From Mustelus asterias (taxonomy: Eukaryota), in NCBI RefSeq assembly GCF_964213995.1, contig NC_135805.1, positions 96,162,001-96,226,000 of the forward strand: DNA of 64,000 nt, read 5' to 3'. The notes beneath the pieces are model-generated. The model searched no databases. It was not told the origin of the DNA and saw only the letters and a program-made list of their open reading frames with translations. Made by a program: the position numbers and the translations under genes. Shown one piece after another: positions 10,847-63,049 of the stretch (positions are counted from its first letter, which is position 1; every line of letters begins with the position of its first letter).

Positions 10847-10879
10847 TTACCTGAAGATCACCCCTGGCATGGTGATTTC

Positions 10880-11105
10880 ACAGTCAGAAGTCTCACAACA
10901 CCAGGTTAAAGTCCAACAGGTTTATTTGGTAGCAAAAGCTACTAGCTTTCGGAGTGCTGCTCCTTCATCAGGTGAGTCACCTGATGAAGGAGCAGCACTC
11001 CGAAAGCTAGTGGCTTTTGCTACCAAATAAACCTGTTGAACTTTAACCTGGTGTTGTGAGACTTCTTACTGTGTTTACCCCAGTCCAACACCAGCATCTC
11101 CACAT
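10880..11105 (+). mobile_element. Miniature palindromic Penelope-like insertion carrying two hammerhead ribozymes
   Basis: About 195-bp near-perfect palindrome (10879-11073, centre 10976) plus an unpaired 3' tail; TSD CATGGTGATTTC at 10868-10879 and 11106-11117; homologous to the 3' end of the PLE at 62020-62146. Confidence 0.9.
10977..11013 (+). ncRNA. Minimal type I hammerhead ribozyme (mirror copy on the minus strand at 10939-10975)
   Basis: TCAC-CTGATGA-A-GGAG(cagca)CTCC-GAAA-GCTA-GTGG: core boxes, stem II, palindromic AGCT stem III, stem I TCAC/GTGG. Confidence 0.8.
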
Positions 11106-11579
11106 CATGGTGATTTCTGACAGCTCTATGATCAACATCTTCATTAATGCCTGCCAGTTGAAGTGGTCAGCTCACTTTAATCTCTATGTCTCCTGGACAC
11201 CTGGCAAGCTTTTAAATTACAGTGGCACTTCATTCTTCAGCAGAGATTTTCCTTTCTCTCTGTCAGAAGTTGCTGGTGAGAGTAAACCCCTTTGAAGTAT
11301 TCTGACAGAGAAGAAGCTCTCCACATCTGTTCACTCAACTCCAATGGATTCACACAGCTTTTATTTGAAGTCTCTGAGCCTTACTGGAAAGCATAATCCT
11401 TTGAAACTCTTTCTATTCCATTGTAAACCTTTGATTTATTTCAATTTCATAGTGCAGTCCTTTAAAATAGTCTTTGGTTGACATTTCAATGGATTTCTAT
11501 TCAGCCTCCAGTCAGCTGTGTTTATTTACCTTTCCCTTTGCTTTTGAATGCATCTCAAATACCCCCATTGTTCCCAAAG

Positions 11580-13415
11580 GCTTCAGAGGGAACAGGGATT
11601 TTGGTGTTTTTGTCCACAGATCCCTGAACGCAGGCTGCCTGACAGGTTAATAGGGTAGTTAAGAAAGCATAAAGAACATTTGTCTTTACCAGTCATGGCA
11701 TAGATTATAAGAGTGAGGAGATTATGCAGGAGCTTAAGTTAGGCCACAGCTGGAGTACTTTGTGCAGTTCTGGTCACCTCACTATAGAACCATAGAAAAT
11801 TACAGCTCAGAAACAGGCCTTTTGGCCCTTCTTGTCTGTGCCAAACCAGTTTTTGCCTAGTCCCACTGACCTGCACTTGGACCATATCCCTCCACACCCC
11901 TCTCATCCATGAACCCATCCAAGTTTTTCTTAAATATTAAAAGTGACCCGCATTTACCACTTTATCCGGCAGCTCATTCCACACTCCCACCACTCTCTGC
12001 GTGAAGAAGCCCCCCCCTAATATTCCCTTTAAACTTTTCTCCTTTCACCCTTAACCCATGCCCTCTGATTTTTTTCTCCCCTAGCCTCAGTGGAAAAAGC
12101 CTGCTTGCATTCACTCTAACTATACCCATCAAAATCTTATACACCTCTATCAAATCTCCCCTCATTCTTCTACGCTCCAGGGAATAAAGTCCCAATCTAT
12201 TCAATCTCTCTCTGTAACTCAGCTTCTCAAGTGCCGGCAACATCCTTGTGAACCTTCTCTGCACTCTTTCAACCTTATTTACATCCTTCCTGTAACTAGG
12301 TGACCAAAGCTGTACTCTAAATTCGGCCCCACCAATGCCTTATATAACCTTACCATAACACTCCAACTTTTATACTTGATATTCCGATTTAAAAGGCCAA
12401 TGTATCAAAGGCACTCTTTATGACCCTATCCACCTGTGACGTCACTTTTAGGGAATTCTGTACCTGTATTCCCAGATCCCTCTGTTCAACTGCACTCTTC
12501 AGAGTCCTACCATTTACCCTGTACGTTCTACTTTGGTTTGTCCTTCCAAAGTGCAATATCTCACACTTGTCTACGTTAAATTCCATTTGCCATTTTTCAG
12601 CCCATTTTTCTAGTTGGTCCAAATCCCTTTGCAAGCTTTGAAAACTTTCCTCACTGTCCACTACACCTCCAATCTTTGTATCATCAGTAAATTTGCTGAT
12701 CCAATTTACCACATTATCATCCAGATCATTGATATAGATGACAAACAACAATGGACCCAACACCGATCCCTGCGGCACACCACTAGTCACAGGCCTGCAC
12801 TCAGAGAAGCAATCCTCCACAACCACTCTCTGGCTTCTTCCATTGAGCTAGTGTCTAATCTAATTTACTACCTCCCCATGTATACCCAGAGACTGAACCT
12901 TCCTAACTAACCTATAGGAAGGATGTGATTGCATTGGAGGGGGTACAGAGGAGATTCACCCGGATTTTGCCTGGGATGGAGAATTTGAGTTATGAAGAGA
13001 GGCTGGATAGGCTCAGGTTGTTTTCTTTAGAGCAGAGAAGGCTGAGGGGGGACCTGATTGAGGCATATAAGATTAAGAGGGGTATGGACAGGGTGGACAG
13101 GAAGCAGCTGTTCCTCTTAGTTGACGAGTCAATAACAAGGGGGCATAATTTTAAGCTGAAGGACAGGAGGTTCAGAGAGGATTTGAGGAAAACGTTTTTC
13201 ACCCAGATGGTGGTGGGAGTTTGGAATGTCCTGCCTGGGAGGGTATTAGAGGCAGGAAACCTTACAACCTTTAAAAAGTATGTGGATCAGCACTTGAAAC
13301 ATCATAACATTCAAGGCAATGGGCCGAGTGCTGGAAAATGGGATTAGTGTAGATTTAGTTTAGTTTTGTTGGTGCAGACTCAATGGGCTGAAGGGCCTAT
13401 TTTGTACTGTACTAT
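11580..13415 (+). mobile_element. Older CR1 3' fragment split by a nested CR1
   Basis: ...FWSPHY at 11785 resumes as RKDVIALEGVQRRF at about 12915. Confidence 0.9.
11788..12911 (-). mobile_element. Nested 5'-truncated CR1
   Basis: RT motifs GVPQGSVLGP and KFTDDTK; flanked by CTATAG at 11782-11787 and 12912-12917. Confidence 0.93.
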
Positions 13416-13679
13416 GTCCTATTTAAATGTATACCCGGACATGTATGCAAGGACATTGACTTGTGACTGACGGAGTTTATTTATTTGTTCCAGGATTAAT
13501 GGGACAGTTTGAAATCTCTTTGATGGCTTTCAGTATTTCCTTAATTCCAGCAAAATGTAGCAGAATAGCAGTGTGTCAAAGGCTGAAAAATTTGGTTCTG
13601 TACTGCTGGCTGAAGTGACATTACAGAAGCCAGAGCAGCTGCAAAATGACTGGTGGACTGCTTCGAGTCACCTCCAGCA

Positions 13680-15340
13680 TGGCCTGCAGATGAAATTTAA
13701 TGCAGAGAAGCATGAAGTGATATATTTGGGTAGGAAGATTGAAGAGAGGCAATACAAAATAAAGCTTATCATTCTAAAAGGAATTCAGAAGCAGAGGCTC
13801 CTGGGGTTATGTGCATAAGTTGTTGAAGGTGTCAAAACAGGTTAAGAAGGTGGTTAATAAAGCATATGTGATCCTGGACCTTATAAATAAAAGCAGGTAC
13901 AAAAGCAAAACGATTATAAAGAGATTTTATGAAGCACTGGTTTGGCCTCAACAGGAGTATTGCATCTAATTTCGGGCACTTTAGGAAGGATGTGAAGACA
14001 TTGGAAAATGTGCAAAAAAGATTTACGACAACAATTCAATTACATAGACATATTTGAGAAACTGGTGCTGTTCTCCTTAAGGAAAAAAGAGGTTGAGAGG
14101 AGATTTGCTAGAGGAATACATTGCCTGTGAGTGTAGTGGAGGCAGGTTCAATCATGACTTTTGGATACATTTTTAAAGAGGAAGGTTTTGGAGAGCCATG
14201 GAGAAAGGACAGTGTAAGTTTTAGGGCAAATCCTCCATGATTAAAGAACCCAGGGATATGGAAAATGGCCGGCTGGCTGTCAGGCCACATGAATATGCAA
14301 GAGGCTGGGAATAATGAGAAGGTCAAGACAGGGATGATCTAATCAACAGGAAACAAAGGAGAAACCATGGCCAGCAGACGAGGAGTAAATAGCCCAGCAG
14401 CAAGACAATGAGAACAGAGATCATTCCATCCACGGACAACATCAAGACTCAGCTCGCTGATGGGATTCCAATCAGGCTGACTCAGAGAACATTTAAAAGA
14501 CATTAAAATATCAATTAAGGGCGGTCCCGACAGTTCCGGCCCTTTTGTTTCAGTCAATCAAAACTACCAATGATCAGAAACTATTTTGTGTGAGAGAATC
14601 ACTGGTTCAGGTTTTGAAAAGGGACAAGCAAGCTCTGGCTTCCCTCTCTTCTCTCTCTTCTCCTGTTCCTGCCTCTCGTTCGTCTCCAGCACGCAGCCCG
14701 AAGCCCACTGAGCAATTTAAACTAGGATTGTGAGTATCCTCTGGTAATTCGCGAAGTTCCCGAGATCATCATAGTGGATGAGGCTTTGGGGAAAGGGCTT
14801 GGGGGGGGGGGGGGGGGCTTTTGCATGCACCTTTCATAGTTTAAGACACTGGTAAACTTGTGTAAAGTAAGCATTCCCGTTGTGCCCGTTTTAGTATTCC
14901 TTCCATAGCTATAGTCTTATAGAGCATAAGGCATTGTGTGTTGTTTTCCTGGTGTTTGGTGATCTTGACCTTGATGTTTTAACAAATATATATATATCTT
15001 TGACTTCCATTGGAATCCGTTTTGATCTTTTCAATTTCTCACCAACGATCTCTGACCAAGTCACAATATTAAATAACCCTTACCATAATTCCGGAGCGCT
15101 ACTGTAGTGAAGTAGGCGCAAGGTGGCTGTTGTTCCATCGGCGAGAGAGAGAATCACGCGGGCATTGGTGGGGTTTGGGTAACGGAGAACCAAACCTGAG
15201 ATAAGCCCACGAGTGGAGTTAAAAAGGGGATCCCGCTACAGCAGGGTGTGGGATGCACTGAGTTGGCCTTGCAGACAGCCAGCATGGACACAATGGGTCA
15301 AATGGCCTTCTGCTGTGCTGTCACCATTCTGTGATTCTAT
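13680..15340 (+). mobile_element. Degenerate CR1 3' end interrupted by a solo LTR
   Basis: QMKFNAEKHEVI motif; 3' UTR continues after 15240 to TTCTGTGATTCTA. Confidence 0.8.
14213..15240 (+). mobile_element. Solo LTR of about 1.03 kb (ERV- or Gypsy-like)
   Basis: TGTA...TACA termini, 4-bp TSD ACAG/GCAG with one mismatch, precisely interrupts collinear CR1 sequence; orientation is inferred. Confidence 0.7.
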
Positions 15341-15344
15341 AATG

Positions 15345-15935
15345 ATACATAGCTGACATACTACAGTTTGCTCTCCACCATTTCTTCAAGAAGAGCATGG
15401 TGGACCTACATGGTAGGAAAGGGGACATCATCACCTTCCCTCCTAAGAGAGAAAAGTAGGGATCACAGGCCCTTGGGTTTATCGGGCTAATGGGATTCAA
15501 TGACTGTATGCACATGCCTCTACAAGGCCACATCTAAACAGGGAGATGCACCGGGTCGTTAAGGCCTTCTGTTCCAGGAGTGTGAAGTTGATGTGCTACT
15601 TTGCCCAGGATATGATGTCACTGCAGGTGGCTACCTTGGCACCAGTCATGACAACTTGATCTTGAGGCAAAATGACTTTCCACTATCTTTGAGCCATCAC
15701 AACCATCCAGGAGTTGGTTGTTTGGAGGTGTGGGATACTCACTCCACTTCTGGCTAATGATTTTCCTCTGCCACTCAACTGTGCAATGACAATGCATCAA
15801 AATGGAAGTCATACAGCCAAAAAGAAGTGTGGAGTCTTCCCATATTCACCAAAGTAATGTGTACAAGTTTACGGTGGTTTGCTGCATTCTTCCCAAACTC
15901 GCTATCATGAAGGATCAGCCCTTGCCACCATTAAC
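15345..15935 (+). pseudogene. PIF/Harbinger (HARBI1-like) DDE transposase relic
   Basis: Manual translation across stops and frameshifts: GFIGLMGFNDCMHMPLQ (cf. GFP..GAIDCTHV), GYLGTSHDNLILRQ (cf. YPGS.HD.FILR), SWLFGGVGYSLHFWLM (cf. GWLLGDKGYPL..WLM), VVCCILPKLAI. Confidence 0.8.
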
Positions 15936-15965
15936 TTGGAAAAAATTACGTCCCAGAAGCCTATC

Positions 15966-17378
15966 ATAAGAACATAAGAACATAAGAAATAGGAGCAGGA
16001 GTAGGCCATCTAGCCCCTCGAGCCTGCCCCGCCATTCAATAAGATCATGGCTGATCTGACGTGGATCAGTATCACTTACCCGCCTGATCCCCATAACCCT
16101 TAATTCCCTTACCGATCAGGAATCCATCCATCCGCGCTTTAAACATATTCAGCGAGGTAGCCTCCACCACCTCAGTGGGCAGAGAATTCCAGAGATTCAC
16201 CACCCTCTGGGAGAAGAAGTTCCTCCTCAACTCTGTCTTAAACCGACCCCCCTTTATTTTGAGGCTGTGTCCTCTAGTTTTAACTTCCTTACTAAGTGGA
16301 AAGAATCTCTCCGCCTCCACCCTATCCAGCCCCCGCATTATCTTATAAGTCTCCATAAGATCCCCCCTCATCCTTCTAAACTCCAACGAGTACAAACCCA
16401 ATCTCCTCAGCCTCTCCTCATAATCCAAACCCCTCATCTCCGGTATCAACTTGGTGAACCTTCTCTGCACTCCCTCCAATGCCAATATATCCTTCCTCAT
16501 ATAAGGGGACCAATACTGCACACAGTATCCCAGCTGCGGCCTCACCAATGCCCTGTACAGGTGCATCAAGACATCCCTGCTTTTATATTCTATCCCCCTC
16601 GCGATATAGGCCAACATCCCATTTGCCTTCTTGATCACCTGTTGTACCTGCAGACTGGGCTTTTGCGTCTCATGCACAAGGACCCCCAGGTCCCTTTGCA
16701 CGGTAGCATGTTTTAATTTGTTTCCATTGAGATAGTAATCCCATTTGTTATTATTTCCTCCAAAGTGTATAACCTCGCACTTCTCAACGTTATACTCCAT
16801 TTGCCATATCCTCGCCCACTCACTCAGCCTGTCCAAATCTCTCTGCAGATCTTCTCCGTCCTCCACACGATTCACTTTTCCACTTATCTTTGTGTCGTCT
16901 GCAAACTTCGTTACCCTACACTCCGTCCCCTCCTCCAGATCATCTATATAAATGGTAAATAGTTGCGGCCCGAGTACCGATCCCTGCGGCACGCCACTAG
17001 TTACCTTCCTCCAACCGGAAAAACACCCATTTATTCCGACTCTTTGCTTCCTGTCGGAGAGCCAGTCCCCAATCCACTTTAACACACTACCCCCAACTCC
17101 GTGTGCCCTAATCTTCTTCAGCAGCCTTTTATGGGGCACCTTATCAAACGCCTTTTGGAAATCCAAAAACACCGCATCCACCGGTTCTCCTCCATCAACC
17201 GCCCTAGTCACATCTTCATAAAAATCCAACATGTTCGTCAAGCACGACTTTCCCCTCATGAATCCATGCTGCGTCTGATTGATCGAACCATTTCTATCCA
17301 GATGCCCTGCTATCTCCTCTTTAATAATGGATTCCAGCATTTTCCCTACTACAGACGTTAAGCTGACCGGCCTATAGT
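15966..17378 (-). mobile_element. Young 5'-truncated CR1 LINE, same subfamily as 8422-9604
   Basis: Open RT frame; (CATAAGAA)n tail on the plus strand. Confidence 0.97.
16072..17340 (-). CDS. CR1 ORF2 fragment (RT domain to C-terminus)
   Basis: 422 aa open frame: QHGFMRGKSCLTN, DFQKAFDKV, FADD. Confidence 0.85.
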   Translation of the reverse strand: MLESIIKEEIAGHLDRNGSINQTQHGFMRGKSCLTNMLDFYEDVTRAVDGGEPVDAVFLDFQKAFDKVPHKRLLKKIRAHGVGGSVLKWIGDWLSDRKQRVGINGCFSGWRKVTSGVPQGSVLGPQLFTIYIDDLEEGTECRVTKFADDTKISGKVNRVEDGEDLQRDLDRLSEWARIWQMEYNVEKCEVIHFGGNNNKWDYYLNGNKLKHATVQRDLGVLVHETQKPSLQVQQVIKKANGMLAYIARGIEYKSRDVLMHLYRALVRPQLGYCVQYWSPYMRKDILALEGVQRRFTKLIPEMRGLDYEERLRRLGLYSLEFRRMRGDLMETYKIMRGLDRVEAERFFPLSKEVKTRGHSLKIKGGRFKTELRRNFFSQRVVNLWNSLPTEVVEATSLNMFKARMDGFLIGKGIKGYGDQAGK

Positions 17379-17544
17379 TTCTGCATCAAGAGAAGCCGAT
17401 GGAGCTTTGGAAAGAAATGTCACTTGAAGATGCATTCATTAAGCTTTGCCACCTATTAGAGCTGTTCAACATCTACAGATACTGTTGCCACTCCCTCAGT
17501 GCTGACTCCAGCAATTAATCTTCTTTCCCACCTTTTTTGATGAT

Positions 17545-19425: not shown

Positions 19426-19444
19426 TGTGTTGGTTAGAATGGGA

Positions 19445-23055: not shown

Positions 23056-23476
23056 CTCCCCATGAATGGGGGACAGTCGTGTTGGCCTTACTGGTGGAAC
23101 CACTCACAAAACCATGCTAACTGTCCCTAATCAGTCCTTACCTCTCTAAATTGATTTAATTGTTTATTTATTTAATTAGTCAGCTAGTGTGTGTTTTTTT
23201 TTTGGCCTTTACTTTTGCAGTAGCATTTTAAGTTTAAAGTGAAAACTGGAAGTGGGCTGCTAAGGAGTCTGGGAAGGGTTTTTTAAGCACGCGAAGTATA
23301 AAAGGTAGGCTGCAGTATACAGCGGGCAGCGTCGGGAGCGGGCAGTGGAGTGCGTGGGAAGCAGAGTGTGAGTTATCAGGCTTTGGCTCACAGGGCTTAG
23401 GCAGAAAAGGCGAGCAGGGGTGAGATTAATTCATTTTTGCTGTTTGTACCTGGTACTGGCAAGGTATCCAGAGGGG

Positions 23477-24403
23477 ATGGGTGTGCAGGCAGTGCTATGT
23501 TCCTCTTGCACTATGTTTGAGGTGAGGGACGACGACAGTGTCCCTGCTGATTACATCTGTGGGAAGTGCACCCATCTGCAGCTCCTCCAAAACCGTGTTA
23601 GGGAACTGGAGCTGGAGTTGGATGAACTTAGGATCATTAGGGACGCAGAGGTGGCCATAGACAGAAGCTTTAGGGATACAGTTACTCCGAGGAATGAAAA
23701 CAGATGGGTGACGGTGAGAGGGGCTGGGAGGAAGCAGTCCGTGCAGGGATCCCCGGTGGTCGTTCCCCTTAGCAACAAGTATTCCGCTTTGGATACGGTT
23801 GAGGGGGATGACATACCAGTGGTGAGCCGCAGTGAGAGGATCTCCAGCACTGTGTCCGTTTCTGTGGCTCGGGAGGGTAAGGGGCAGAGCGGGAGGGCAA
23901 TAGTTATTGGGGACTCGTTAGTTAGAGGGATAGATAGGAGGTTCTGTGGCAGCAAAAGAGACTCACGGATGGTATGTTGCCTACCGGATGCCAAGGTCCG
24001 TGACGTCTCAGACCATGTTTTCCGGATTCTGAAGGGGGAGGGGAAACAGTCACAAGTCGTGGTACACATTGGTAGCAATGACATAGGTAAGAGAAGGGAC
24101 GGGGATTTAAAGCAGGAATTTCTGGAGCTGGGCTGGAAGCTGAGAGCCAAGACGAAACATGTGGTCATCTCTGGTATGTTGCCGGTGCCACGTGATAGCG
24201 AGTTGAGGAACAGGGAGAGAGTGCAGTTAAACATGTGGTTGCAGGGATGGTGTAGGAGGGAGGGTTTCAGATACGTGGATAATTGGAACACATTCTGGGG
24301 AAGGTGGGACCTGTACAAACAGGACGGGGTGCTCCTGAACCTGAGGGGCACCAATATCCTAGGAGGGAAATTTGTTACGGTTCTTCAGCGGGGTTTAAAC
24401 TAA
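23477..24403 (+). CDS. CR1 ORF1p: zinc finger, leucine zipper, SGNH esterase-like domain
   Basis: CSSC...CGKC, LQNRVRELELELDEL, IVIGDS, HIGSND, DGVLLN (the usual His is replaced); ATG at 23477 is in frame with the ORF track. Confidence 0.9.
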   Translation: MGVQAVLCSSCTMFEVRDDDSVPADYICGKCTHLQLLQNRVRELELELDELRIIRDAEVAIDRSFRDTVTPRNENRWVTVRGAGRKQSVQGSPVVVPLSNKYSALDTVEGDDIPVVSRSERISSTVSVSVAREGKGQSGRAIVIGDSLVRGIDRRFCGSKRDSRMVCCLPDAKVRDVSDHVFRILKGEGKQSQVVVHIGSNDIGKRRDGDLKQEFLELGWKLRAKTKHVVISGMLPVPRDSELRNRERVQLNMWLQGWCRREGFRYVDNWNTFWGRWDLYKQDGVLLNLRGTNILGGKFVTVLQRGLN

Positions 24404-27291
24404 TTTGTCAGGGGAGTGGGAAAAGGAGTTGTAGTCCAGAAGTCAGTGAGGGTGGTGAGGTATTGGGGAAGCTATCAGGGTCAAGGGTGGGTACCGGTAG
24501 ACAGGAAGGTGGGTTGAAGTGTGTCTACTTCAATGCAAGGAGCATCCGGAACAAGGTAGATGAACTTGGGGCTTGGATTGGTACTTGGGACTACGATGTT
24601 GTGGCCATTACGGAGACGTGGGTAGAACAAGGAATGGTTGTTGGACGTTCCGGATTATAGATGTTTCACTGAGTGTAGGGACGCTGGTAAAAGAGGTGGA
24701 GGAGTGGCTTGTTAATCAAGGATAGTTTAACGGCTGCGGAAAGGCACTTCGAGGGGGATCTGCACACTGAGGTAATATGGGCTGAGGTTAGAAATAGGAA
24801 AGGAGCGGTCACGTTGTTAGGAGTTTACTATAGGCCCCCAAATAGTAATAGAGATGTGGAGGAAGAAATTGCTAAGCAGATTATGGATATGCGTGGGGGT
24901 CGCAGGGTAGTTGTCATGGGGGACTTTAACTTTCCAAATATTGATTGGAACCTTTGTAGGTCAAATAGTTTGGATGGGGCAGTTTTTGTGCAGTGTGTGC
25001 AGGAGGGTTTCCTGACACAATATGTGGATAGGCCGACAAGAGGTGAGGTCACATTGGATTTGGTACTGGGAAATGAACCGGGCCAAGTGTTAGATTTGGT
25101 TGTGGGAGAGCACTTTGGAGATAGTGACCACAATTCGGTGTCTTTTGTTATTGCAATGGAGAGGGATAGGGCCGTACGGCAGGGCAAGGTTTACAATTGG
25201 GGGAGAGGTAATTATGATGCGATTAGGCAAGAATTAGGGGGCATAAGTTGGGAACAGAAACTGTCAGAGAAAGGAACTAATGAAAAGTGGAACTTTTTCA
25301 AGGAACAAATACTGGGTGTCCTTGATAGGTATGTCCCTGTCAGGCAGGGAGGAAATGGCCGAGTGAGGGAACCATGGTTCACAAAAGAGGTGGAATGTCT
25401 TGTGAAAAGGAAGAGGGAAGCTTATGTAGGGATGAGGAAACAAGGTTCAGATGGCTCGATTGAGGGTTACAAGTTAGCAAGGAATGAGCTGAAAAAAGGG
25501 CTTAGGAGAGCTAGGAGGGGACACGAGAAGTCCTTGGCGGGTCAGATCAAGGAAAACTCCAAGGCTTTTTACTCTTATGTGAGGAATAAAAGAATGACCA
25601 GGGTGAGGTTAGGGCCGGTCAAGGACAGTAGTGGGAACTTGTGTATGGAGTCAGTAGAGATAGGCGAGGTGATGAATGAATACTTTTCTTCAGTGTTCAC
25701 CAAGGAGAGGGGCCATGTTTTTGAGGAAGAGAAGGTGTTACAGGCTAATAGGCTGGAAGAAATAGATGTTCGGAGGGAGGATGTCCTGGCAGTTTTGAAT
25801 AAACTGAAGGTCGATAAGTCCCCTGGGCCTGATGAAATGTATCCTAGGATTTTTTTGGACGCAAGGGATGAGATTGCAGAGCCTTTGGCGTTGATCTTTG
25901 GGTCCTCGCTGTCCACGGGGATGGTGCCAGAGGACTGGAGAATGGCGAATGTTGTTCCTCTATTTAAGAAAGGGAATAGAAATGACTCTGGTAATTATAG
26001 ACCGGTTAGTCTTACTTCGGTGGTTGGTAAATTGATGGAAAAGGTCCTTAGGGATGGGATTTACGACCATTTAGAAAGATGCGGATTAATCCGGGATAGT
26101 CAGCACGGATTCGTGAAGGGCAAGTCGTGCCTCACAAATTTGATAGAATTTTTTGAGGAGGTAATGAAGTGTGTTGATGAAGGTAGGGCAGTTGATGTCA
26201 TATACATGGATTTTAGTAAGGCGTTTGATAAGGTCCCCCATGGTCGGCTTATGATGAAAGTGAGGAGGTGTGGGATAGAGGGAAAGTTGGCCGATTGGAT
26301 AGGTAACTGGCTGTCTGATCGAAGACAGAGGGTGGTGGTGGATGGAAAATGTTCGGATTGGAGGCAGGTTGCTAGCGGAGTGCCGCAGGGATCAGTGCTT
26401 GGTCCTCTGCTCTTTGTGATTTTTATTAATGACTTAGAGGAGGGGGCTGAAGGGTGGATCAGTAAATTTGCTGATGACACCAAGATTGGTGGAGTAGTGG
26501 ATGAGGTGGAGGGCTGTTGTAGGCTGCAAAGAGACATAGATAGGATGCAAAGCTGGGCTGAAAAATGGCAAATGGTGTTTAACCCTGATAAATGTGAGGT
26601 GATTCATTTTGGTAGGACTAATTTAAATGTGGATTACAGGGTCAAAGGTAGGGTTCTGAAGACTGTGGAGGAACAGAGAGATCTTGGGGTCCATATCCAC
26701 AGATCTCTAAAGGTTGCCACTCAAGTGGATAGAGCTGTGAAGAAGGCCTATAGTGTGTTAGCTTTTATTAACAGGGGGTTGGAGTTTAAGAGCTGTGGGG
26801 TTATGCTGCAACTGTACAGGACCTTGGTGAGACCACATTTGGAATATTGTGTGCAGTTCTGGTCACCTCACTATAAGAAGGATGTGGAAGCGCTGGAAAG
26901 AGTGCAGAGGAGATTTACCAGGATGCTGCCTGGTTTGGAGGGTAGGTCTTATGAGGAAAGGTTGAGGGAGCTAGGGCAGTTCTCTCTGAAGCGGAGGAGG
27001 CTGAGGGGAGACTTAATAGAGGTTTATAAAATGATGAAGGGGATAGATAGAGTGAATGTTCAAAGACTATTTCCTCGGGTGGATGGAGCTATTACAAGGG
27101 GTCATAACTATAGGCTTCGTGGTGGGAGATACAGGAAGGATATCAGAGGTAGGTTCTTTACGCAGAGAGTGGTTGGGGTGTGGAATGGACTACCTGCAGT
27201 GATAGTGGAGTCAGACACTTTAGGAACATTTAAGCGGTTATTGGATAGGCACATGGAGCACACCAGGATGATAGGGAGTGGGATAGCTTGA
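24404..27291 (+). pseudogene. CR1 ORF2 (APE endonuclease + RT), frameshifted near 24630 and 24708, then open for 860 aa
   Basis: YFNARSI and ITETW in one frame; YRPP, GDFN, SDH, NYRPVS, FADD in the 24709-27291 frame. Confidence 0.92.
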
Positions 27292-39837: not shown

Positions 39838-40800
39838 TGGGCTGAATTCTTCCACTTTCAGGTTAAGTGTCCCCGCTGGCAGGTAAACAGGAGTGTTTCG
39901 CTGGCAGCGCCTGTCGGGTGGGATTCACCCACCTGAAAGATGCTAATGAGCTCATTTTGGGGAACCTGCCAGCCAGCCCTGCTGTTTGGAGATCAGGGCG
40001 CTGTTCAGATCAGGGAGACAGGCCCCCTCCCCCCAAAAAATGAAATGCTGTCCTCCTCCCCCACTGATCAGGGGAGCACCACCAACCTCTCACCAAAGCG
40101 CTGACGTTTGGAACTGACAGAGATCAAAGCTTTCCAGTGACAGACAGTTTCAAATGTTTCAAAGGTTTCAACTTGCTCGGAAGCCTCAGAAACTTTAAAT
40201 CAAAGTTGTATGCATACATTGGAGCTGAGTGCACAGCTGTGCATAATGGAACACCCCCCACCCCTCCCCCCCTCCCCCACCCCCCCTTCCCCCCCCAACA
40301 CCCCCCACATCCCCCTCCCAAGTGAAATTGACATCTCCTCTCTGTCAGAGGACTTCAAAGGGGTCTGCGCACACCTGCAGCTTCTGACAGGGAGAAAGGA
40401 AAATCTATATTGCAGAATGGCATGTGCAGTGATTTAAAAGCTTGTAGATGACCAGGGGGCATGGAGATTAAAGTGACCTGGCCACTTCAGAATTTGCACA
40501 GCTAACAGGCAGGAATGCAGATGTTCATCACAGAACTGCCTGAAATCACCACTTCATGAAATCACCACATCTCCACATCATGAAATCACCATGCCAGGGG
40601 TGATTTTCAGGTCTCTCAGGGCAAGAAGAGGAGTCTAGCTATGAGATCCTCATCCAAGGGGAGAGTGGCGAGGTCAACAACTTGACTCCAGCCTGAGCCT
40701 ACCCAACTCACAGGAGCCTTGAGGGACCCTTCCTCTGTAACTTGGCGGTGGCAGAGGGGCAAATGGCCACTGGACTTAGCACCTTGGCCCCCGGGACATA
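39838..40800. mobile_element. GC-rich MITE-like element, inverted homologue of 10849-11340
   Basis: 40320-40615 matches the reverse complement of 10849-11320; starts GGGCTGAATTCTTCC. Confidence 0.55.
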
Positions 40801-52619: not shown

Positions 52620-53560
52620 CTTTAGTCCTCACTGGCACCCAGCTGTCATCTGTGGCTCTAAGGGATTATTTGCATGCAACAGCCACCAAATCTTGAACCT
52701 GCAACCCCAAATACTGAAGTCACAGTTTTTCATTCATTCATCTGGCTTTCATTCATCTGAAGTAACGATGGACCTTGGCAACCCAAATCAACTGAACCGT
52801 TCTAGTCAGGATCACACTGCTCACCTCCATGGCAGAAGGAAGGATCTGGAACAGGTGCCCAAAAACATTGTCTGCTACATTTACCCTGGCCAATTTACCA
52901 TGACTGACAGGGATCCTGTTAAAGTCGTCAAACAATACATATGAAGAAGACAGAGGTAACATCGCTTACCATTGGTATGTGGAACACACAAATGCTCATG
53001 CTCTATGCCAGAGCTGGCAGACCAGAGGCGAACAACCCTGCTTGGGAGAAATCTTGTAAGAGTTTTAACAACACCAGGTTAAAGTCCAACAGGTTTATTT
53101 GGTAGCAAATGCCAAATGGCATTTGCTACCAAATAAACCTGTTGGACTTTAACCTGGTGTTGTTAAAACTCTTACTGTGTTTACCCCAGTCAAATGCCGG
53201 CATCTCCACATCATGGGAGAAATCTTTCCAGATACAGCATGTATGTAGCAGCATTGAGTGAGACTTGACTCACCTAGAATGAAGGGTAAATTAGTGGAAC
53301 TGGAACTTGATGCAGCTTATTCTGCTGCAGTGGCAGTAGCAAAGAGCATCATGAAGCAGGAATAGGGCTGTCCTCAAACTTGCCAGCCTTCCCAAAGGCA
53401 AAACTCACTGCCTCATGACATTGCAGCTTTCCCTCACAGTGAAAAATCATGTCACCATTGTTCGTGCTAACGCACTCAGGATGTCAAATTCTGAAATGTA
53501 TGAAGAGTTAAAATCTTTGATTGCTGCAGTGCCAAGATCAGACAATCTCATCAGCGCAGA
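52620..53560 (+). mobile_element. RTE (BovB-like) LINE 5' fragment, endonuclease region
   Basis: LTIGMWN, RPE/RRTTLLGR, VAALSET, LMTLQL...TIVRANA...LIAAVPRSDNLI. Confidence 0.75.
53056..53213 (+). mobile_element. Miniature palindromic PLE insertion without the ribozyme core
   Basis: 120-bp palindrome 53056-53175 (loop AA at 53115-53116) plus tail; perfect TSD TGGGAGAAATCTT (53043-53055, 53214-53226). Confidence 0.9.
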
Positions 53561-54064
53561 ACTCCTGTGGAGTAGCAATCACTGTCAGATTGCCACTCCA
53601 ATCTTTTTTAACTAAGCCAGGTTTCGAGCTGCAGGTCTCCTGTCTAATCCTCAATCCTGGGTCTGGTGAGAAATGTGAAGGCAGCTGCTCCGGGGGCCAT
53701 CCACCACGGCAGCATCACGGTGATGGGAGAGAGAGAGAGGGGGGGGGGGGGGTGGGGTTGGGGGAGGGGATTGAAGCCATGCTCCCTTCTTGCAGCATTT
53801 ACTGCCATAAACCAGGGAAGCTTTAAGGTTCCCAGCTGTCCCGCTCATGTGATAACATATTACCTTGGACTGATTTAATGTACAAGACACACAAGACATC
53901 AATCAGTCACAAGGGATTGGCTAAATATGTTGTGAGTTTGGGAGGGTTGGGTTTTCGGGGGGTTTGGGTGCTTTTGGGGATGGGGCCATGTGAGGTCGGA
54001 GGGTATATGATGTGATCCTTGCCCTCCTACTACACCCACTCCACCAATGCCCTTGTTACTGCCA

Positions 54065-54155
54065 GTAAGAAGTCAAATAAACCTGTTGGACTTTAACCTG
54101 GTGTTGTGAGACTTCTTACTGTGCTTACCCAAGTCCAACGCCGGCATCTCCACAT
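54065..54155 (+). mobile_element. Very short PLE insertion with a roughly 10-bp inverted arm
   Basis: GTAAGAAGTC inverted arm, then PLE 3' end; TSD CTTGTTA(C/G)TGCCA (54052-54064, 54156-54168). Confidence 0.85.
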
Positions 54156-56149
54156 CTTGTTAGTGCCACACAGTGAGTGAGGTTGGCCCAGCACTTGCCG
54201 GCATGCAGTCTGCATCTGGACCCTCAAGGACAGGGGTTGCTCAATGCCACCCACAACAGCCATCTGAAGTGCCCTTAGTGGAAGTTGAGCAATTGTATGT
54301 TCCATCTTCCAAACTGTAGAGAACAAGAAGCATTTTGTAAGAGTACCCAGGATTCGTTAAAAAACCCAAAAAGTAGGCATTAGGAAACTTCAATGGCTGA
54401 TATAATTGATAAAATACACAGATGGAATTGTGTTTTTTGACGTTTTTTTGTTATTCTGAATCTCATGTTAGTGTTAATATTGATGATGAAGTGAAGGCAA
54501 AACCCTCAAAGCTATAATGAGGCAGGCAGTCAGATGGTAGTAGTAGGGACAGTGTTTACAATGATTGTGGTGCTGTCAATGTATGGGGAATGGGATGGAT
54601 TGTTTATGTGTGACACTGTTGGATGAGCCACTCTCTGAGAACTCGGGTAGCTAGGGATGCTAATGGTAGATGTTGCTTTTGATCATCTGCCTCTGGCAGC
54701 CCAGCTGGTGGCAAGAGTTAGCCCCTCATTGTGGCAAAGTTGTGGAGCATGCAACCAGAAATTGGGGAAGTGGAATTCCTTCTCATTCCCATGATGGGGC
54801 ACAAAAAGATATGGATGAAATCTATGGTACCATGGACCTTGGAATGTGAGTGAAGAATTGTGTACTCTGGCATTGCTTCACTCTACCCATTGGGAAAGAG
54901 ATGCATGTATTTACTTTGACATAAAGCACTTCGGCGACCTCCTTGCTAAAATGGTGACTACTTTAGGTTAAATCTAATTGACTGGAATACATTGCGGCTG
55001 CAATCAACATAAGATATTCTGCAAAGTCTGAAATTATTATTCATACCTCATCAAATGCAAGAAGAGATAATTTTAGATAATAGAGCACTGTGTTCATGCT
55101 CTGGGTTTTAATGCATTTGCAAAATCATATGGATTGTTCACATTTTGAACTGCTTTAAGTATGTGTGAAGTAATGACAGAAAGAGAGGGCAAGCTAAAAA
55201 GAACCTGCTTATGGAAGTTGAAGGATCCATTTGATCTCCAGTCAGACTCCGAATTGATACAGCGCAGCTCAGTGAAATGAACAAAGCCTTTTCGCTTTCT
55301 ATTTCAACTCACCTGGCAAGATTTTTTTTGTTAATTTGTGAACCTCCTGTCGACTCTCCTTTAGATTTCTGGTTTATAAGTTGTGTTGTGAGTTCCTTTA
55401 ATTGAGCTCTGAATTGTCAGAGCAGGTTTCCATGTAGCTGGATCATCCTGGCAGTGCAGTCAAGCTAAAAACTAGTTACCTTTACAACAAATCTGGCTGA
55501 GTGCCTGTGGTATCAATCTTCATTGAAACTGGGTGTGCAGTACCTTATTATCAACTATCAGCCTGCTAAAGGTACTTTCTATTAACTAAGTACTTCTAAT
55601 TTAAATTTCTGCACCTTTCAGCAAACACTGGCCAATTAATTCTGATAACCTTTGTACTCACATGACTAATATATTCATACAGAATGTTATCCTACAATCT
55701 TATGACATGAATAACGTTTGGCTGATGTTTGAGTATTTTCCAATAAAATAATTTGAAGGCAAAATTAAAAGGTTATACCATATAAATATCTCTTCACGCT
55801 TATGTTTATTGACAATTTTCACTATTTTGCTGAATGCTATGTTTTGAATATCTTCTGGCCTTTCATCCTCATTTTGTATTTGCATTTTGTGGCAGTGTTG
55901 TTTGTGCACTTGTGATCCTCTGTTGAACAATAAGGCAAATGTAACTTCTCCTTTCGTACACGGGGAAATTATGATGACCATTCATTTATCTTGTAAATTC
56001 CTTCAAAATATACGGTAATAATACAAGAATTGTTAAAACTAATTAGAGCAACTGTTCATGTCATATCCTCCACATTGAAAACTTTGGCAATTATAAGAAG
56101 GCTCTTTGTTACATTGCCCTGGATAATACAATCGTGAAATTCAGCAAGG

Positions 56150-56545
56150 GTGCCAGCAGGAGTGTGCTGTGCATGCACCTAAAACACGCCGAGTGGGTGG
56201 ATTGTGATATCAAATAGTTTGCAACACTGTTTTGGGGCATGAGGGTCAGGATTTGCTGCCAGTGACCATGGTTCTGCAATTCTACTCCAGCGGATCCTTC
56301 CTGATGGGAACTGGCACATCGTGCAACGTCTGGCAGTTCACCAGTTGTTAATACATCATGGAAGAGGCTCTGTATAGAGGACAAGGGAACTTCATTGCTT
56401 TGTCATTGACAAGCAAGGAGAAGGTGGGGAGAGCATGTGAATTTCTGAGACTGGCAGGATTCCTGGTGGTGCAAGTTGCAATCAACTACAAAAGAGGCTC
56501 TGTAGCTCCCACTTGTTAATGGGGAGACTTTCTTTAACCATAATC
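56150..56545 (+). pseudogene. Second Harbinger transposase relic
   Basis: VTMVLQFYSSGSFLMGTG (cf. VT.ALNFYASGSFQ..TG), EALYRG..NFI, RLAGFLVVQVAINY (cf. AGFP.VQGAIDC); cut by a MITE starting GGGCCGGGATTTTCC at about 56554. Confidence 0.75.
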
Positions 56546-58371: not shown

Positions 58372-58640
58372 TGTGGTGATTGTCCCTTTAAGGACAATAC
58401 AACAAAAGAGGGTCACCTGTCCTGGGGACCAATTGGGACTGAGAGTGGGTAATCACCCCAGGAGATGGAGTGTGCTCTTAGGCGAAGACATCCAGAGGGC
58501 ATATAGCAGAAATGTAGGGATTGGGGCAACCAGTGGGCTGCTCTAGAGCAGCCAGGGGGCTACTAGCCTCTGTAAAGTTTTTCCTTATTAATAAATACAC
58601 TTTGTGTTTCTGACAAAGTCTGTGAGCGTGTATCATTAGA
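58372..58640 (+). mobile_element. Possible short solo LTR
   Basis: TGTGGTGA..CCCTTTAAGG start like 22123, AATAAA near the end; no convincing TSD or terminal CA. Confidence 0.4.
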
Positions 58641-58844
58641 TGGCAGTTCAAATTTCAAACAGTTCCCCTAGGGAGGATAACAGGAGGGGAGTGTAAGTGT
58701 GAGTGTGGGCCAGAAGCAGAGCCTGAAAAGCTACTGCATTTTGGGAGCACAATTAACACTAACAACTCATCAATTCCATTAACTCAGACCTGGATATGAA
58801 CATAACACACCATCACTCCACCATCACCGCGCCACCCACCCTCA

Positions 58845-59817
58845 GAGCCCTATTTCACCATTTTGATTCAAAGTGCTAGCGGACTTGAAACTGGGAATGT
58901 TTCAGATCCGACTTTTAGACCCATTCTCCGGCGCCCCCTTACGCACTCTGCCTGAAACAGTATCAGCAATTCCGAATCACGCTGCACAAGTCTGTGGGCG
59001 GGGCTTAACACGCCCGAAATCCTGTAGCTCCGATCGGGGCATCCAACTGCGCATGCGCAGAAAGAAAAATAGAATGTTGCTCCCCTGCCACATCCTTGCC
59101 TCCCTCTGGCCTCCACAGACATTGCCCACCCACACAACATTACTGACGCCCTTATCCCCCAACCCCCCAATCGCGGGTCCCTCCCCCTCCTTCCCCCCCA
59201 GCAATCACAGACAGAGTGGCAGCGGACCCCCATTCCACCCCACTGATCTCAGGCAGAGTGACAGTGGACCCCTTTCCCCTCCATTGATCTCAGGCAGAGT
59301 GGCAGCAGACCGCCCCCCCACTCATCTTAGGCAGAGTGGCAGCTGACCCCCCTTCTCCCCCACTGATCTCAGGCAGAGTGGCAACAGACCCCCCCGCCCT
59401 TCCTCCCCACTCATCTCAGGCAGAGTGGCAGCGGACCCCCCTTCTCCCCCACAATCTCAAGCAGAGAGCCGTCGGACTCTAAGCACCTACCACCTCACTA
59501 ACTGGAGTGCCCAAATCGGACTTCTATCGAGCATGTAGGTTTTGTGTCGATTGTGGGGAGGGTGAACGCGGTGGTAACGGGGGAGGTGCTGGTAAAGTTG
59601 GGCGTGTAGCCCATTAAGTCTATTTAAATGCACGCAAATACATTTAAATGGCCGTCACGTTCATTTTGGGCACGGTCCTGATCGCGGCCATTTTCGGGCC
59701 TTGGTAAAGGGGGAACCGACGTGGGGGCAGGCGTGGATCGCACTACTCGCCTCACGCCCAACTTTACCAAGTTTTTGTGCCCAAAAATGGGCGCAAAGCG
59801 ATGGTAAAATTGGGCCC
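58845..59817. mobile_element. PIF/Harbinger MITE, same family as 44024-45516 in the opposite orientation
   Basis: TIRs GAGCCCTATTTCACCA / TGGTAAAATTGGGCCC; 3-bp TSD TCA (58842-58844, 59818-59820). Confidence 0.8.
59205..59465. repeat. Minisatellite of about 40-bp units inside the MITE
   Basis: About 6-7 copies of CTGATCTCAGGCAGAGTGGCAGCGGACCCCC-like units. Confidence 0.85.
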
Positions 59818-61055
59818 TCAGACTGTACCAGCCAGGCAGGCTGTTGTCCCACTCACTGATCACCTATTTATGTTACACACCACACCCAACACTGATCCTG
59901 TTGGAATTGTTTGGAGAAATTTTAATATTTACTTGTCAGATTTTAAGGAAAAATGTTCATTACCTTTGTTTTGGACAGTGGTGCAAATGGGGGCCTGTAA
60001 TTGAACTGAATATCAGGTACTGGGCAGTCAATCCAATATCACCCATTTTATATCACTGCCCAAGACAAACTTTTACCCCAGGATCTGATAGCAAACCAAT
60101 TATTTCATTAGATGTTAAATGCCATTGTTGCTCAAAGTCGACTTTGGTTACGACAGTGTATGACTTTTTAGTTAAACTATTTAAATAATAATGTGCTCGG
60201 TGAATTCCATATCTATGGGCTAGAAATCATTCCGTTATGATTTGCGACCTGGCTGCACCAATTGTCATGGAGGCAGTCTGCACAAAATTATTTGTGTTGC
60301 CTCCTTTACCTGACAGCATTGGTCCATTTGGAGATCTGCTCTACCAACCTCTTACACTGCTCAGTGCATTCACATCACACAACTTTCCCAGTGTGGGTGC
60401 TGTGCAGTTGTGTTGGAAGCTCTGCACGCCTCACATGGAGGGCATTGGACTTCCATAGCTTTGGCTCCCGTCATGCTGTAGATTAAAATTTCATGCCCTG
60501 TGTATTGAACAAAGCAAGAAGTCTCACAACACCAGGTTAAAGTCCAACAGGTTTATTTGGTAGCAAATACCATAAGCTTTCGGAGCGCTGCTCCTTCGTC
60601 AGATGGAGTGGAAATGTGCTCTCAAACAGGGCACAGAGACACAGAAATCAAGTTACAGAATACTAATTAGAATGCGAATCCCTACAGCCAGCCAGGTCTT
60701 AAAGGTACAGACAATGTGGGTGGAGGGAGCATTAAACACACGTTAAAGAGATGTGTATTGTCTCCAGACAGAACAGCTAGTGAGATTCTGCAAGTCCAGG
60801 GGGCAAGCTGTGGGGGTTACTGATAACGTGACATAAATCCAACATCCCGGTTTAGGCCGTCCTCATGTGTGCGGAACTTGGCTATCAGTTTCTGCTCAGC
60901 GACTCTGCGCTGTCGTGTGTCGTGAAGGCCGCCTTGGAGAACGCTTACCTGAAGATCCAAGGCTGAATGCAGTTTTTCGCTGTGGCGCGTCAGAACTGTT
61001 GATCGATGAGTCGAGCGCCATATCCTGTTCTTATGAGGGCATCTTTCAGCCTCTG

Positions 61056-61808
61056 GATGCCCTCATAAGAACAGGATATGACGCTCGACTCATCGATCAA
61101 CAGTTCCGACGCACCACAGTGAAAAACCGCACCGACCTCCTCAGAAGACAAACACGGGACACGGTGGACAGAGTACCCTTCGTCGTCCAGTACATCCCCG
61201 GAGCGGAGAAGCTACGGCATCTCCTCCGGAGTCTTCAACATGTCATTGATGAAGACGAACATCTCGCCAAGGCCATCCCCACACCCCCACTTCTTGCCTT
61301 CAAACAACCACGCAACCTCAAACAGACCATTGTCCGTAGCAAACTACCCAGCCTTCAGGAGAACAGTGACCACGACACCACACAACCCTGCCACAGCAAC
61401 CTCTGCAAGACGTGCCGGATCATCGACACGGATGCCATCATCTCACGTGAGAACACCATCTACCAGGTACACGGTACCTACTCTTGCAACTCGGCCAACG
61501 TTGTCTGCCTGATACGGTGCAGGAAAGGATGTCCTGAGACATGGTACATTGGGGAAACCATGCAGACGCTACGACAACGGATGAATGAACACCGCTCGAC
61601 AATCACCAGGCAAGACTGTTCTCTTCCTGTGGGGGAGCACTTCAGCAGTCACTGGCATTCAGCCTTGGATCTTCAGGTAAGCGTTCTCCAAGGCGGCCTT
61701 CACGACACACGACAGCGCAGAGTCGCTGAGCAGAAACTGATAGCCAAGTTCCGCACACATGAGGATGGCCTAAACCGGGATGTTGGATTTATGTCACGTT
61801 ATCAGTAA
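61056..61808 (+). CDS. PLE ORF C-terminus: RT thumb end, Cys-rich linker, GIY-YIG endonuclease
   Basis: PCHSNLCKTC linker, NVVCLIRC..WYIGETMQTLRQRMNEH, EHF, EQKLI..DGLN; the first 63 aa of the ORF-track call come from the inverted arm. Confidence 0.9.
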   Translation, partial: DALIRTGYDARLIDQQFRRTTVKNRTDLLRRQTRDTVDRVPFVVQYIPGAEKLRHLLRSLQHVIDEDEHLAKAIPTPPLLAFKQPRNLKQTIVRSKLPSLQENSDHDTTQPCHSNLCKTCRIIDTDAIISRENTIYQVHGTYSCNSANVVCLIRCRKGCPETWYIGETMQTLRQRMNEHRSTITRQDCSLPVGEHFSSHWHSALDLQVSVLQGGLHDTRQRRVAEQKLIAKFRTHEDGLNRDVGFMSRYQ

Positions 61809-62018
61809 CCCCCACAGCTTGCCCCCTGGACTTGCAGAATCTCACTAGCTGTTCTGTCTGGAGACAATACACATCTCTTTAACGTGTGTTTAATGCTCCC
61901 TCCACCCACATTGTCTGTACCTTTAAGACCTGGTTGGTTGTAGAGATTCGCATTCTAATTAGTATTCTGTAACTTGATTTCTGTGCCTCTGTGCCCTGTT
62001 TGAGAGCACATTTCCACT

Positions 62019-62055
62019 CCATCTGACGAAGGAGCAGCGCTCCGAAAGCTTATGG
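62019..62055 (+). ncRNA. Minimal type I hammerhead ribozyme (mirror copy on the minus strand at 60570-60606)
   Basis: CCAT-CTGACGA-A-GGAGC(agc)GCTCC-GAAA-GCTT-ATGG; stems I and II pair perfectly. Confidence 0.85.
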
Positions 62056-63049
62056 TATTTGCTACCAAATAAACCTGTTGGACTTTAACCTGGTGTTGTG
62101 AGACTTCTTACTGTGTTCACCCCAGTCCAACGCCGACATCTCCACATATTGAACAAAGCCACATACTTATAACACTCTTATGGAAATTTGAAGATATTTT
62201 CAGATGTCATTGATATTTCTAATCACTACGTCTAAATTTGAAAAGTAAGCATTTTTAAAATCGTTTACATAAAATTTAGGATAGATCTTTCAATAAAAAA
62301 ACTATCAACTTGAAAACTTAGAGATCTGATTCTGAAAGACACCAACATCGCCTCCCCCCAACTTTATTAAATTTTTCTCCCTCACTTGAAAGTAGTACTT
62401 GCTCGTTATAGCAAAATTTAAATGTGCATTAGCAGCAATATTCTCATCAAATGTGACATTCTTAATGCAAATCTAAATATTCACGACTTATTTCCCTCTG
62501 GAAGCATCTCAACATAATGTAATCGGGTCCTCACATTACGTGCATGCTCTTCTGTTTTTCAGCAAATAACGGAAAGTAGTTGATATTTTCCCCCTCTGAC
62601 CTGGAAATGCAGAGCATAGATGTAATACGCTGACTGAATTGAATAAACTCAGAACAGACCAGAGTCATAGCATTCTGACAGCAGATCAGGATTCCTCAAA
62701 TTGATGGTAGATTGATCACAGATTAGAATGACCTTTAACAAATAGGATTCATGCTTTTTTAAGCAAGTGCTGCTTTTGATGAAGTGATCACAAGGATGTA
62801 TATCCACACATTGTAGGAGACACGGTAGCAGATGTCCAAATCTGTTGTATGAATGGAAAAAGAAAACCAATAAGGTAAGCACACTTGGAATGGTTTTATA
62901 ATTGCTTTTTGAAGAATTAATCGATCCACCAAAATACAAGACTTGACTGCAAATCCACTGACACATTGTTGTATATTTGCCATGTCAAATGCATGTAACA
63001 CAGAATCATGGCCTGATTACAGAAGGAAATAATTTCTCCCATCATGTCT

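Follow-up and report, generated by a model that had tools for sequence, protein, structure and literature searches.

A spaced palindrome outside the target site duplications of a Penelope-like element family in Mustelus asterias, with a proposed two-ended priming of one RNA

The closest described relatives of the element family considered here are the endonuclease-bearing (EN+) Penelope-like elements (PLEs) of the Neptune/Nematis type. According to the available parts of PMC8557442, these possess one open reading frame (ORF) encoding a reverse transcriptase (RT) of telomerase-like type, a GIY-YIG endonuclease (EN) at the C-terminal end with a CCHH motif and, between RT and EN, a CX2-5CxxC linker that marks Neptune/Nematis and is absent from Penelope/Poseidon; they form pseudo-long terminal repeat (pLTR) tandems and carry an inverted 5'-truncated copy, a one-sided tail of 30–40 bp, and a minimal hammerhead. 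PLE integration and the origin of tandem and inverted structures with a one-sided tail are stated as unresolved in the accessible portions of PMC8557442 and PMC11167929; the literature basis comprised these two papers as well as PMC3846280, PMC4209133, and PMC9977147, each available in part. The named features recur in a PLE family of Mustelus asterias, five copies of which lie in a window of 64,000 nt on contig NC_135805.1 (the whole stretch of DNA analysed, to which all positions refer): CATCTCCACAT terminates five insertions on the + strand, at 11105 (copy A), 40578 (B), 53211 (C), 54155 (D), and 62147 (E). An initial annotation of the window had noticed these insertions by their common tail, and they start where it placed them. 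Element class and anatomy are already known; the target rule set out below is shown for one family in one genome.

Exact copies of the family's tail number at least 64,503 in the M. asterias genome (exact matches to the 26-mer of the initial annotation across 3.68 Gb; reversed control, 0), and near-intact ORFs occur in the genome. A full unit measured 3,017 bp (locus L062) and contained a single 892-aa ORF with RT, a CX4CX2C linker, and GIY-YIG with the CCHH motif. In this full-length sister copy (the window has the 3' part only), RVT_1 was matched at an E-value of 9e-9, with DKG at 297 and YIDD at 533; the protein model reached a pLDDT (predicted local distance difference test) of 90.7, and its top nine Foldseek hits were telomerase RTs. 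The fold search returned RT-fold proteins only and no PLE structure, and a PDB sequence search with the family profile gave 0 hits. For GIY-YIG, no Pfam hit was obtained on the query protein and PF01541 was listed on many homologues; residues Y793/Y806-G808, C797/C801, H821/H837/H843, R817, E867, and N882 were kept in 61–63 of 63 aligned sequences, and the linker C754-X4-C759-X2-C762 was invariant in 62–63 of 63. The closest named relatives of the protein were shark proteins (82–93% identity), and for RNA, no holder was listed for the stretch searched. Because the linker fits the definition in PMC8557442 (as available), the family was placed with Neptune/Nematis, and the five window insertions are genuine 5'-truncated copies of such an element; the PLE identity, the GIY-YIG endonuclease, and the inverted arm with a one-sided tail proposed initially were all supported. 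Tandem (pLTR) junctions were present in L062, L068, L073, and L079, where the tail continues as CACAT-C-ATG-ACT-ACC, i.e., the ORF start. Counted back from the tail end (0), element 3' ends were bimodal, at 0 and at -30 to -36.

Insertion sites were analysed in the window and in 280 loci. The discovery set (L001–L140 and the window) was drawn from 100 exact tail hits listed from the start of contig C1 and from 50 loci chosen for an intact endonuclease region, and the held-out set (L141–L280) was picked by two other tail variants on C1, with regions covering roughly 85 of the 140 additional places listed; the target prediction given below was fixed in writing before the held-out analysis. From 345 tail ends, 16 too close to a locus edge were dropped, leaving 329. 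Target site duplications (TSDs) were accepted at a direct repeat score of at least 9 and a length of up to 25 nt, a threshold that hides TSDs shorter than 9 nt. This yielded accepted TSDs at 222 of 329 real ends versus 3 of 329 cross-paired ends; the yield was 195 of 247 among inverted copies and 27 of 82 among those without inversion. Left out were three satellite-embedded ends with longer repeats and 104 ends without an accepted call. Maximal TSD lengths were 9 nt (4), 10 (18), 11 (17), 12 (69), 13 (59), 14 (26), 15 (14), and 16 or more (15). The stagger is therefore narrow, as the initial annotation had supposed with its fixed value of about 11 nt, and the length itself had to be corrected to 12 or 13 (128/222).

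The target is very probably a spaced palindrome lying outside the TSD, CTG-NN-(12- or 13-nt TSD)-NN-CAG. At fixed positions centred on the TSD, TG-N16-CA was present at 64 of 114 discovery and 51 of 108 held-out sites (3.5 and 2.8 in shifted controls), TG-N17-CA at 26 of 114 and 24 of 108 (controls 3.8 and 3.8), and the longer CTG-N16-CAG at 31 of 114 versus 0.2 and 23 of 108 versus 0. Left and right halves that were fitted freely converged to mirror images (C.68/.68, T.88/.96, G.93/.90), and the log-likelihood of the dyad model was 796 compared with 100 and 77 for shifted controls, with spacings of 16 (0.58) and 17 (0.27) and weak extra preferences for C two bases outside and for G/T and C just inside. 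The TSD edge lay 2 nt inside the half-site at 105 (left) and 110 (right) of 199 well-fitted sites. Since the TSD mode follows the spacing (N16, 12 nt in 51/124; N17, 13 nt in 22/56), the position of each nick appears to be determined by its own half-site. A+T content was 64% in the duplicated core, compared with about 56% in the flanks. Genome-wide, CA occurred at N12 after the tail-TG 4,879 times (N24 control, 1,873), and CTG at N15 before the inverted arm 5,078 times (N27 control, 924). The two-fold symmetry of a TG...CA target had thus been perceived correctly in the initial annotation, which misjudged placement and spacing: the dyad flanks the TSD as TG-N16/17-CA. The TG-N7-CA rule that it placed inside an 11-nt duplication fits two of five window TSDs and 7 of 114 discovery sites (2.8 expected). 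It was refuted by the counts, with 3 of 108 held-out sites against 3.5 expected, 1,382 genome-wide occurrences against 1,873 at the control offset, and a TSD mode of 12–13, and we give it next to no credence. Copies A and B lend it no independent support because their targets are the identical position of one host repeat in opposite orientations, so that their TSDs are mutually reverse-complementary.

The TG at the tail junction, read initially as a target signal, belongs to the element. Across 345 tail ends, the match to the element continuation C, A, T, G decayed from 0.93 over 0.79 and 0.71 to 0.46; because the match to this continuation (CACAT-C-ATG-ACT) decays smoothly past the tail ends, the junction TG is the element's own start codon, retained via microhomology, which is the explanation that the initial annotation had itself named as fatal to its TG signal. 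TG was found within TSD nt 1–5 at 60 of 222 sites, against 53 within nt 5–9; it stood at +3/+4 in 88 junctions, in 37 of which the element alone supplied it.

A dyad not read by the element's endonuclease, produced instead by host break hot spots or by a few abundant, often-hit repeats, is hardly credible. Redundant repeat hits do account for 29 of the 222 sites, and the reading of the dyad by the endonuclease is itself deduced from sequence. After similar targets were collapsed (222 to 193), the signal survived, with TG at -4 in 104 sites (control 14), CA at +2 in 101 (control 15) and, at 1-nt tolerance, both half-sites in 117 (control 9); it is locked two bases from the TSD edges, TSD length tracks spacing, and the dyad was seen in three subfamilies (a comparison covering PLE insertions). 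The insertion bias toward microsatellites hypothesised for the Neptune clade was not seen among the ends inspected, where targets were mostly non-repetitive or within interspersed repeats (3 of 329 ends in a satellite, at L061, and one in (TA)n, at L011).

One empty orthologous site confirmed the TSD. For copy C, single contigs of two other organisms (X3 and X15) join 53042 directly to 53214 and keep exactly one copy of the 13-nt TSD within CTG-N17-CAG; for copy D, no empty site was found in X3 and X15, both of which contain the copy. Among the loci, 82 of the 222 rebuilt sites had a paralogous spanning copy, 66 of these ungapped at the junction. All five window sites fit the dyad (CTG-N16-CAG twice, CTG-N17-CAG, ATG-N17-CAG, and CTG-N17-CAT).

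Two observations concern recurrent targets. A single position of a CR1-like repeat had been the target of different subfamilies time after time and in either orientation, forming a 17-member cluster at a hot spot bearing the dyad (including L001, L009, L024, L039, L045, L062, L067, L125, L138, L140, L213, L215, L239, L254, and L256). At L061:5925–7653, a short-period satellite with abundant CTG/CAG words contained a cluster of at least four insertions, with ambiguous TSD calls (37–40 nt).

With nicks placed by the motif, the tailed side ended at element position -1 to +6 and the inverted arm mostly started at -34 to -37 (90/135; -30 to -33 in about 20/135). At the tail junction, the primer-side match run averaged 1.24 versus 0.45 (n = 153 of 180 usable; excluded were 27 whose TSD edge was shorter), and at the inverted-arm junction 1.07 versus 0.41 (n = 135 of 153; 18 excluded); neither mean was reached in any of 2,000 shuffles. 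A model-free comparison of all 222 sites gave matches of 0.80, 0.58, 0.49, 0.49, and 0.44 at TSD positions 1–5 compared with 0.25–0.31, with background values beyond. From this we infer that the overhang picks its register on the RNA through short pairing. In several non-inverted copies (L016, L129, L246), short TSD-like or templated filler was noted at the 5' junction.

The footprints are probably explained by symmetric cutting at the spaced palindrome and priming of one RNA from both cut ends. The GIY-YIG endonuclease would, with good confidence, nick each strand at 5'-^NNCAG-3', leaving a 12- or 13-nt 3' overhang. One overhang would then likely pair over 1–5 bases near the ORF start codon (-1 to +6) and the second some 35 nt upstream (-34 to -37), each being extended. 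Joining of the two cDNA 3' ends head to head would give the inverted arm and the one-sided tail, and the often equal arms would probably reflect both polymerases running off the same RNA 5' end, a step to which we assign slightly better than even chances. Symmetric cutting by two protein subunits is fairly probable, and successive nicks by one enzyme would leave an identical footprint. I-TevI, a GIY-YIG homing endonuclease, leaves a 2-nt 3' overhang. It may be speculated that the 12–13-nt stagger approximates one helical turn plus this 2-nt offset, placing both active sites on one helix face. The two-ended scheme is supported by the in vitro behaviour of an Anolis PLE protein, which cleaves and extends both strands, uses two RNA start sites that match the tail ends and bound the tail, and is predicted to form a dimer (PMC11167929, in its accessible parts).

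The two arms bear on the route of second-strand synthesis, for which the initial annotation had proposed a cDNA snap-back. In this alternative, following self-priming as proposed in PMC3846280 (available in part), the cut is the same and the tail-primed cDNA folds back and is copied on itself toward the tail. Arm lengths do correlate (rho 0.67; within 10 nt in 76 of 174 simple two-arm copies out of the 195 inverted ones, versus 20 by shuffle), both arms belonged to one subfamily in 127 of 128 classable copies (48 expected) and resembled each other more closely than they did arms from other loci (median 49 versus 46 of 50), and centres are often palindromic (copies A and C). Simple snap-back is nevertheless disfavoured as the main route, and overall unlikely, because it cannot produce an inverted arm outreaching the tailed one: the tail-less inverted arm outreached the other by over 30 nt in 40 of the 174 copies (by over 200 nt in 26), compared with 23 in which the tailed arm did so and 111 within 30 nt. 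Snap-back also leaves the fixed start at -34 to -37 and its primer-type microhomology unexplained. Because each arm often holds sequence that the other lacks, each was likely RNA-templated; because the arms share a subfamily, two independent RNAs are disfavoured. Priming from both nicks on one RNA was accordingly favoured on the basis of microhomology at both junctions, the single subfamily, and the often longer inverted arm. Arms of equal length are compatible with run-off at an RNA 5' end common to both and with snap-back alike. Among incidental head-to-head pairs, 67 of 71 classable ones joined a tailed to a tail-less arm (in 3 neither arm was tailed and in 1 both were; 10 further pairs unclassed).

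Palindromic copies with equal ends and with host flanks also duplicated in inverted form were seen at L232:4057–4660 and L211:4933–5204; these could be true fold-backs, later rearrangements, or assembly products, and as apparent true fold-backs they differ from the usual form, a further point against snap-back. Short insertions at L125:4760–5412 and L128:4883–5048 contained pieces from the extreme 5' end of the ORF, corresponding to read-through of a tandem junction or to an inverted piece (-2934 to -2799).

The tail-less end could also arise if the endonuclease nicked the element's own new DNA (AA^CACAG, antisense, at -32) and so resolved a hairpin, a resolution of the kind suggested in PMC8557442 (available in part). 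A half-site ^NNCAG lies exactly at -32, and the roughly 20 of 135 inverted arms beginning at -30 to -33 would suit it. The 90 arms that begin at -34 to -37 carry target-end microhomology, and no full dyad was found within the element's own tail region (best score 3.7, against a median of 10.0 for real sites), which makes this origin highly improbable.

Several points weigh against the target rule and two-ended priming as set out here. At 1-nt tolerance, 57 of 193 sites had one half-site only and 19 had neither, and other spacings took about 15% of the fit. The motif was fitted from a TG seed with freedom to slide, which inflates its information content and leaves the fixed-position counts unaffected. 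Since 107 of the 329 tail ends had no accepted TSD, the rule is shown for about two thirds of them, mostly inverted copies. Microhomology at TSD position 1 is inflated by maximal-repeat calling, and the nicks are placed from footprints. Near-equal arm lengths and the subfamily concordance of the arms are predicted equally by snap-back, and later deletion inside palindromes could have shortened the tailed arm. In the Anolis study, the authors describe a preference for cutting at ATT and an initiation that lacks homology to the cleaved DNA (PMC11167929, as available), and the dyad rule may be family-specific.

Hammerheads were identified by pattern; an Rfam scan of the window returned no hammerhead. 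There were 280 pattern matches among the loci, with helix I pairs 1–3 kept in 97–99%, covariation at pair 1 (T-A/C-G, 137 versus 130), and a palindromic AGCT in 272. Subfamilies differed in their cores (CTGACGA, CTGAAGA, CTGATGA) and in helix I (CCAT/ATGG versus TCAC/GTGT or GTGG), with a compensatory change at pair 1 and a shortening of helix I in one branch. The family carries a minimal hammerhead motif in the pLTR, and among the five window copies, all annotated initially as ribozyme-bearing, the core is confined to those starting at 10880 (A) and 60516 (E). Arms ended at the predicted hammerhead cut (-95) in only 6 of 348 cases by BLAST, and a footprint of ribozyme cutting was not established: the inner ends placed by BLAST had peaks at -89 and -127 that may reflect how a local hairpin and divergence among subfamilies affected the alignments. 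The sense arm of copy C begins (53116, -95) at the first base past the predicted cut. Rfam microRNA-precursor models matched the copy C palindrome with scores all under the gathering score and were rejected as chance hairpin matches.

Four of the five window copies have an inverted 5' arm, of 96 (A), 59 (C), 10 (D), and about 455 nt (E), which lacks 33, 36, 36, and 38 nt of the tail, respectively (counted to CACAT), in agreement with the 33–40 nt noted initially. The TSDs, annotated as 11–13 bp, are maximal direct repeats of 12 (A), 11 (B), 13 (C), 13 (D, one mismatch), and 13 nt (E), the one for copy A having been quoted with 10 of its 12 nt. In copy A, the left half-site CTG (10864–10866, + strand; the empty site reads CTG-N16-CAG) lies outside the left TSD (10868–10879, +) and is followed by the tail-less inverted arm with an antisense hammerhead (10880–10975, -), the minimal hammerhead motif (10976–11014, +; helix I GTCAC/GTGGC, CTGATGA, helix II, GAAA-GCT-A; assigned by sequence pattern and family covariation), the sense arm with tail (10977–11105, +), and the right TSD (11106–11117) with its half-site CAG (11121–11123), together 11106–11123 (+). 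Copy B, listed initially as an insertion of about 13 bp at 40568, is larger: its whole site extends from CTG (40536–40538) to CAG (40595–40597) on the + strand (40536–40597), with an 11-mer present three times (40541–40551, 40557–40567, 40581–40591, +), CTTCA as five extra nt between the first two, and a 13-nt tail stub (40568–40580, +). The 5 nt within this stretch (40541–40591) resemble the tail end with one change, and the triple 11-mer looks as if priming had begun, slipped, and begun again.

In copy C, CTG (53038–53040) and the left TSD (53043–53055; 13 nt, N17 site) occupy 53038–53055 (+), the empty orthologous site being that in X3 and X15; they are followed by an inverted arm without hammerhead core (-36 to -94; 53056–53114, -), a sense arm from -95 (53116–53213, +), and the right TSD (53214–53226) with CAG (53229–53231), i.e., 53214–53231 (+). 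Copy D has the half-site ATG (54047–54049) and left TSD (54052–54064) at 54047–54064 (+), a 10-nt inverted arm from -36 (54065–54074, -), a sense arm covering -81 to 0 (54074–54155, +), and the right TSD (54156–54168, one mismatch) with CAG (54171–54173) at 54156–54173 (+). Copy E, whose target site assignment follows from the TSD alone, begins with CTG (60498–60500) and the left TSD (60503–60515; 13 nt, N17 site) at 60498–60515 (+). Its inverted arm (60516–61057, -) is split, the first part covering -38 to -490 and the second about -1014 to -1103, and its sense arm (-1089 to 0; 61056–62147, +) comprises the ORF 3' end, the 3' untranslated region, the hammerhead, and the tail. A coding remnant at 61131–61808 (+) retains the RT-EN linker (CX4CX2C) and the GIY-YIG endonuclease, in which the invariant Tyr of the first motif is replaced by Cys; the minimal hammerhead motif lies at 62019–62055 (+; helix I CCAT/ATGG, CTGACGA, helix II, GAAA-GCT-T), and the right TSD (62147–62159) with half-site CAT (62162–62164) at 62147–62164 (+).

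The window is otherwise repeat-rich vertebrate DNA with remnants of CR1-type long interspersed elements (LINEs). Two inverted CR1-type RT fragments (8422–9604 and 15967–17149), 6.4 kb apart, share 99.2% identity over 1,183 bp and are probably two young copies. A near-complete CR1-type LINE at 23372–27291 contains an ORF1 with a GDSL-esterase-like domain and a stop-free 866-aa APE-RT frame. Outside the window, a second, distantly related PLE family (about 30% protein identity) was represented by a fragment at L248:336–797, the sole one in about 2.05 Mb of loci.

Extended to the whole class, the reading would be that PLEs carry out double target-primed reverse transcription by a dimer at a spaced palindrome CTG-N16/17-CAG, using one RNA with starts 35 nt apart, and that the inverted pLTR with a one-sided tail is the direct product; this we regard as tentative, with a little less than even odds. 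If true, it would describe a retrotransposon with a dimeric restriction-like target code and would explain the back-to-back shape of the elements as a product of two-ended priming. Targets that are symmetric, spaced, and read from sequence typify DNA transposases and restriction enzymes rather than target-primed retroelements. The dyad explains recurrent hits at fixed host-repeat positions in a genome whose copies number in the tens of thousands, and a precise substrate (CTG-N16/17-CAG) with predicted nicks, overhang, and two RT start zones can be tested in the published in vitro system.

In LINE-1 twin priming, each of the two target nicks primes a cDNA, which leads to an inversion. There, the second cDNA is primed at a variable internal site and the pieces do not overlap, TSDs vary widely, and the site is one-sided. 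The Mustelus PLE has its second start at a constant distance of about 35 nt from the first, with the result that the two arms are copies of the same sequence. The literature search found no paper applying LINE-1 twin priming to Penelope elements, and neither a spaced palindromic target nor twin priming is described for PLEs in the searchable literature; older subscription papers, Repbase/Dfam notes, or supplements might hold one. The available parts of PMC9977147 and of bioRxiv 10.64898/2026.07.22.740005 contained no PLE target motifs. The GIY-YIG domain of I-TevI (CNNNG motif) likewise reads few bases beside the scissile bond, according to the accessible parts of its description, but it uses one short motif for both nicks, whereas the Mustelus PLE has two half-sites and a 12–13-nt overhang. 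P element targets (PMC2577343, available in part) resemble the dyad in their symmetric preference around a fixed-length TSD, as expected for a multimeric enzyme, and differ in that a DDE transposase and a DNA intermediate are involved rather than a target-primed retroelement.

Among PLEs, PAc, a Poseidon element of Anolis carolinensis, shares cleavage and extension of both strands, a tail bounded by two internal RT starts, a predicted dimer, and a pLTR hammerhead (PMC11167929, in its available parts). Its preference is AT-rich (5'-ATT-3'), with no dyad or fixed stagger given in these parts, which do not include the logo of Fig. S1B; its initiation is called non-homologous to the cut DNA, in contrast to the microhomology of 1–5 nt at both ends in the Mustelus family, and its tail ends 111–118 nt into the ORF rather than at the start codon. 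Pen2/Pen2a of Adineta vaga (PMC3846280, available in part) are alike in their inverted pLTR, an optional 31-bp tail, and TSDs of 8–10 bp on single copies; they differ in that no target consensus is given in that part and the inversion is ascribed to self-priming. Finally, in the Neptune/Nematis elements as described in the available parts of PMC8557442, the linker is tied to microsatellite targeting and TSDs of PLEs are hard to discern or variable, whereas the Mustelus family, with the same linker type, has a spaced, non-repetitive palindrome and a TSD of 12 or 13 nt set by its spacing.

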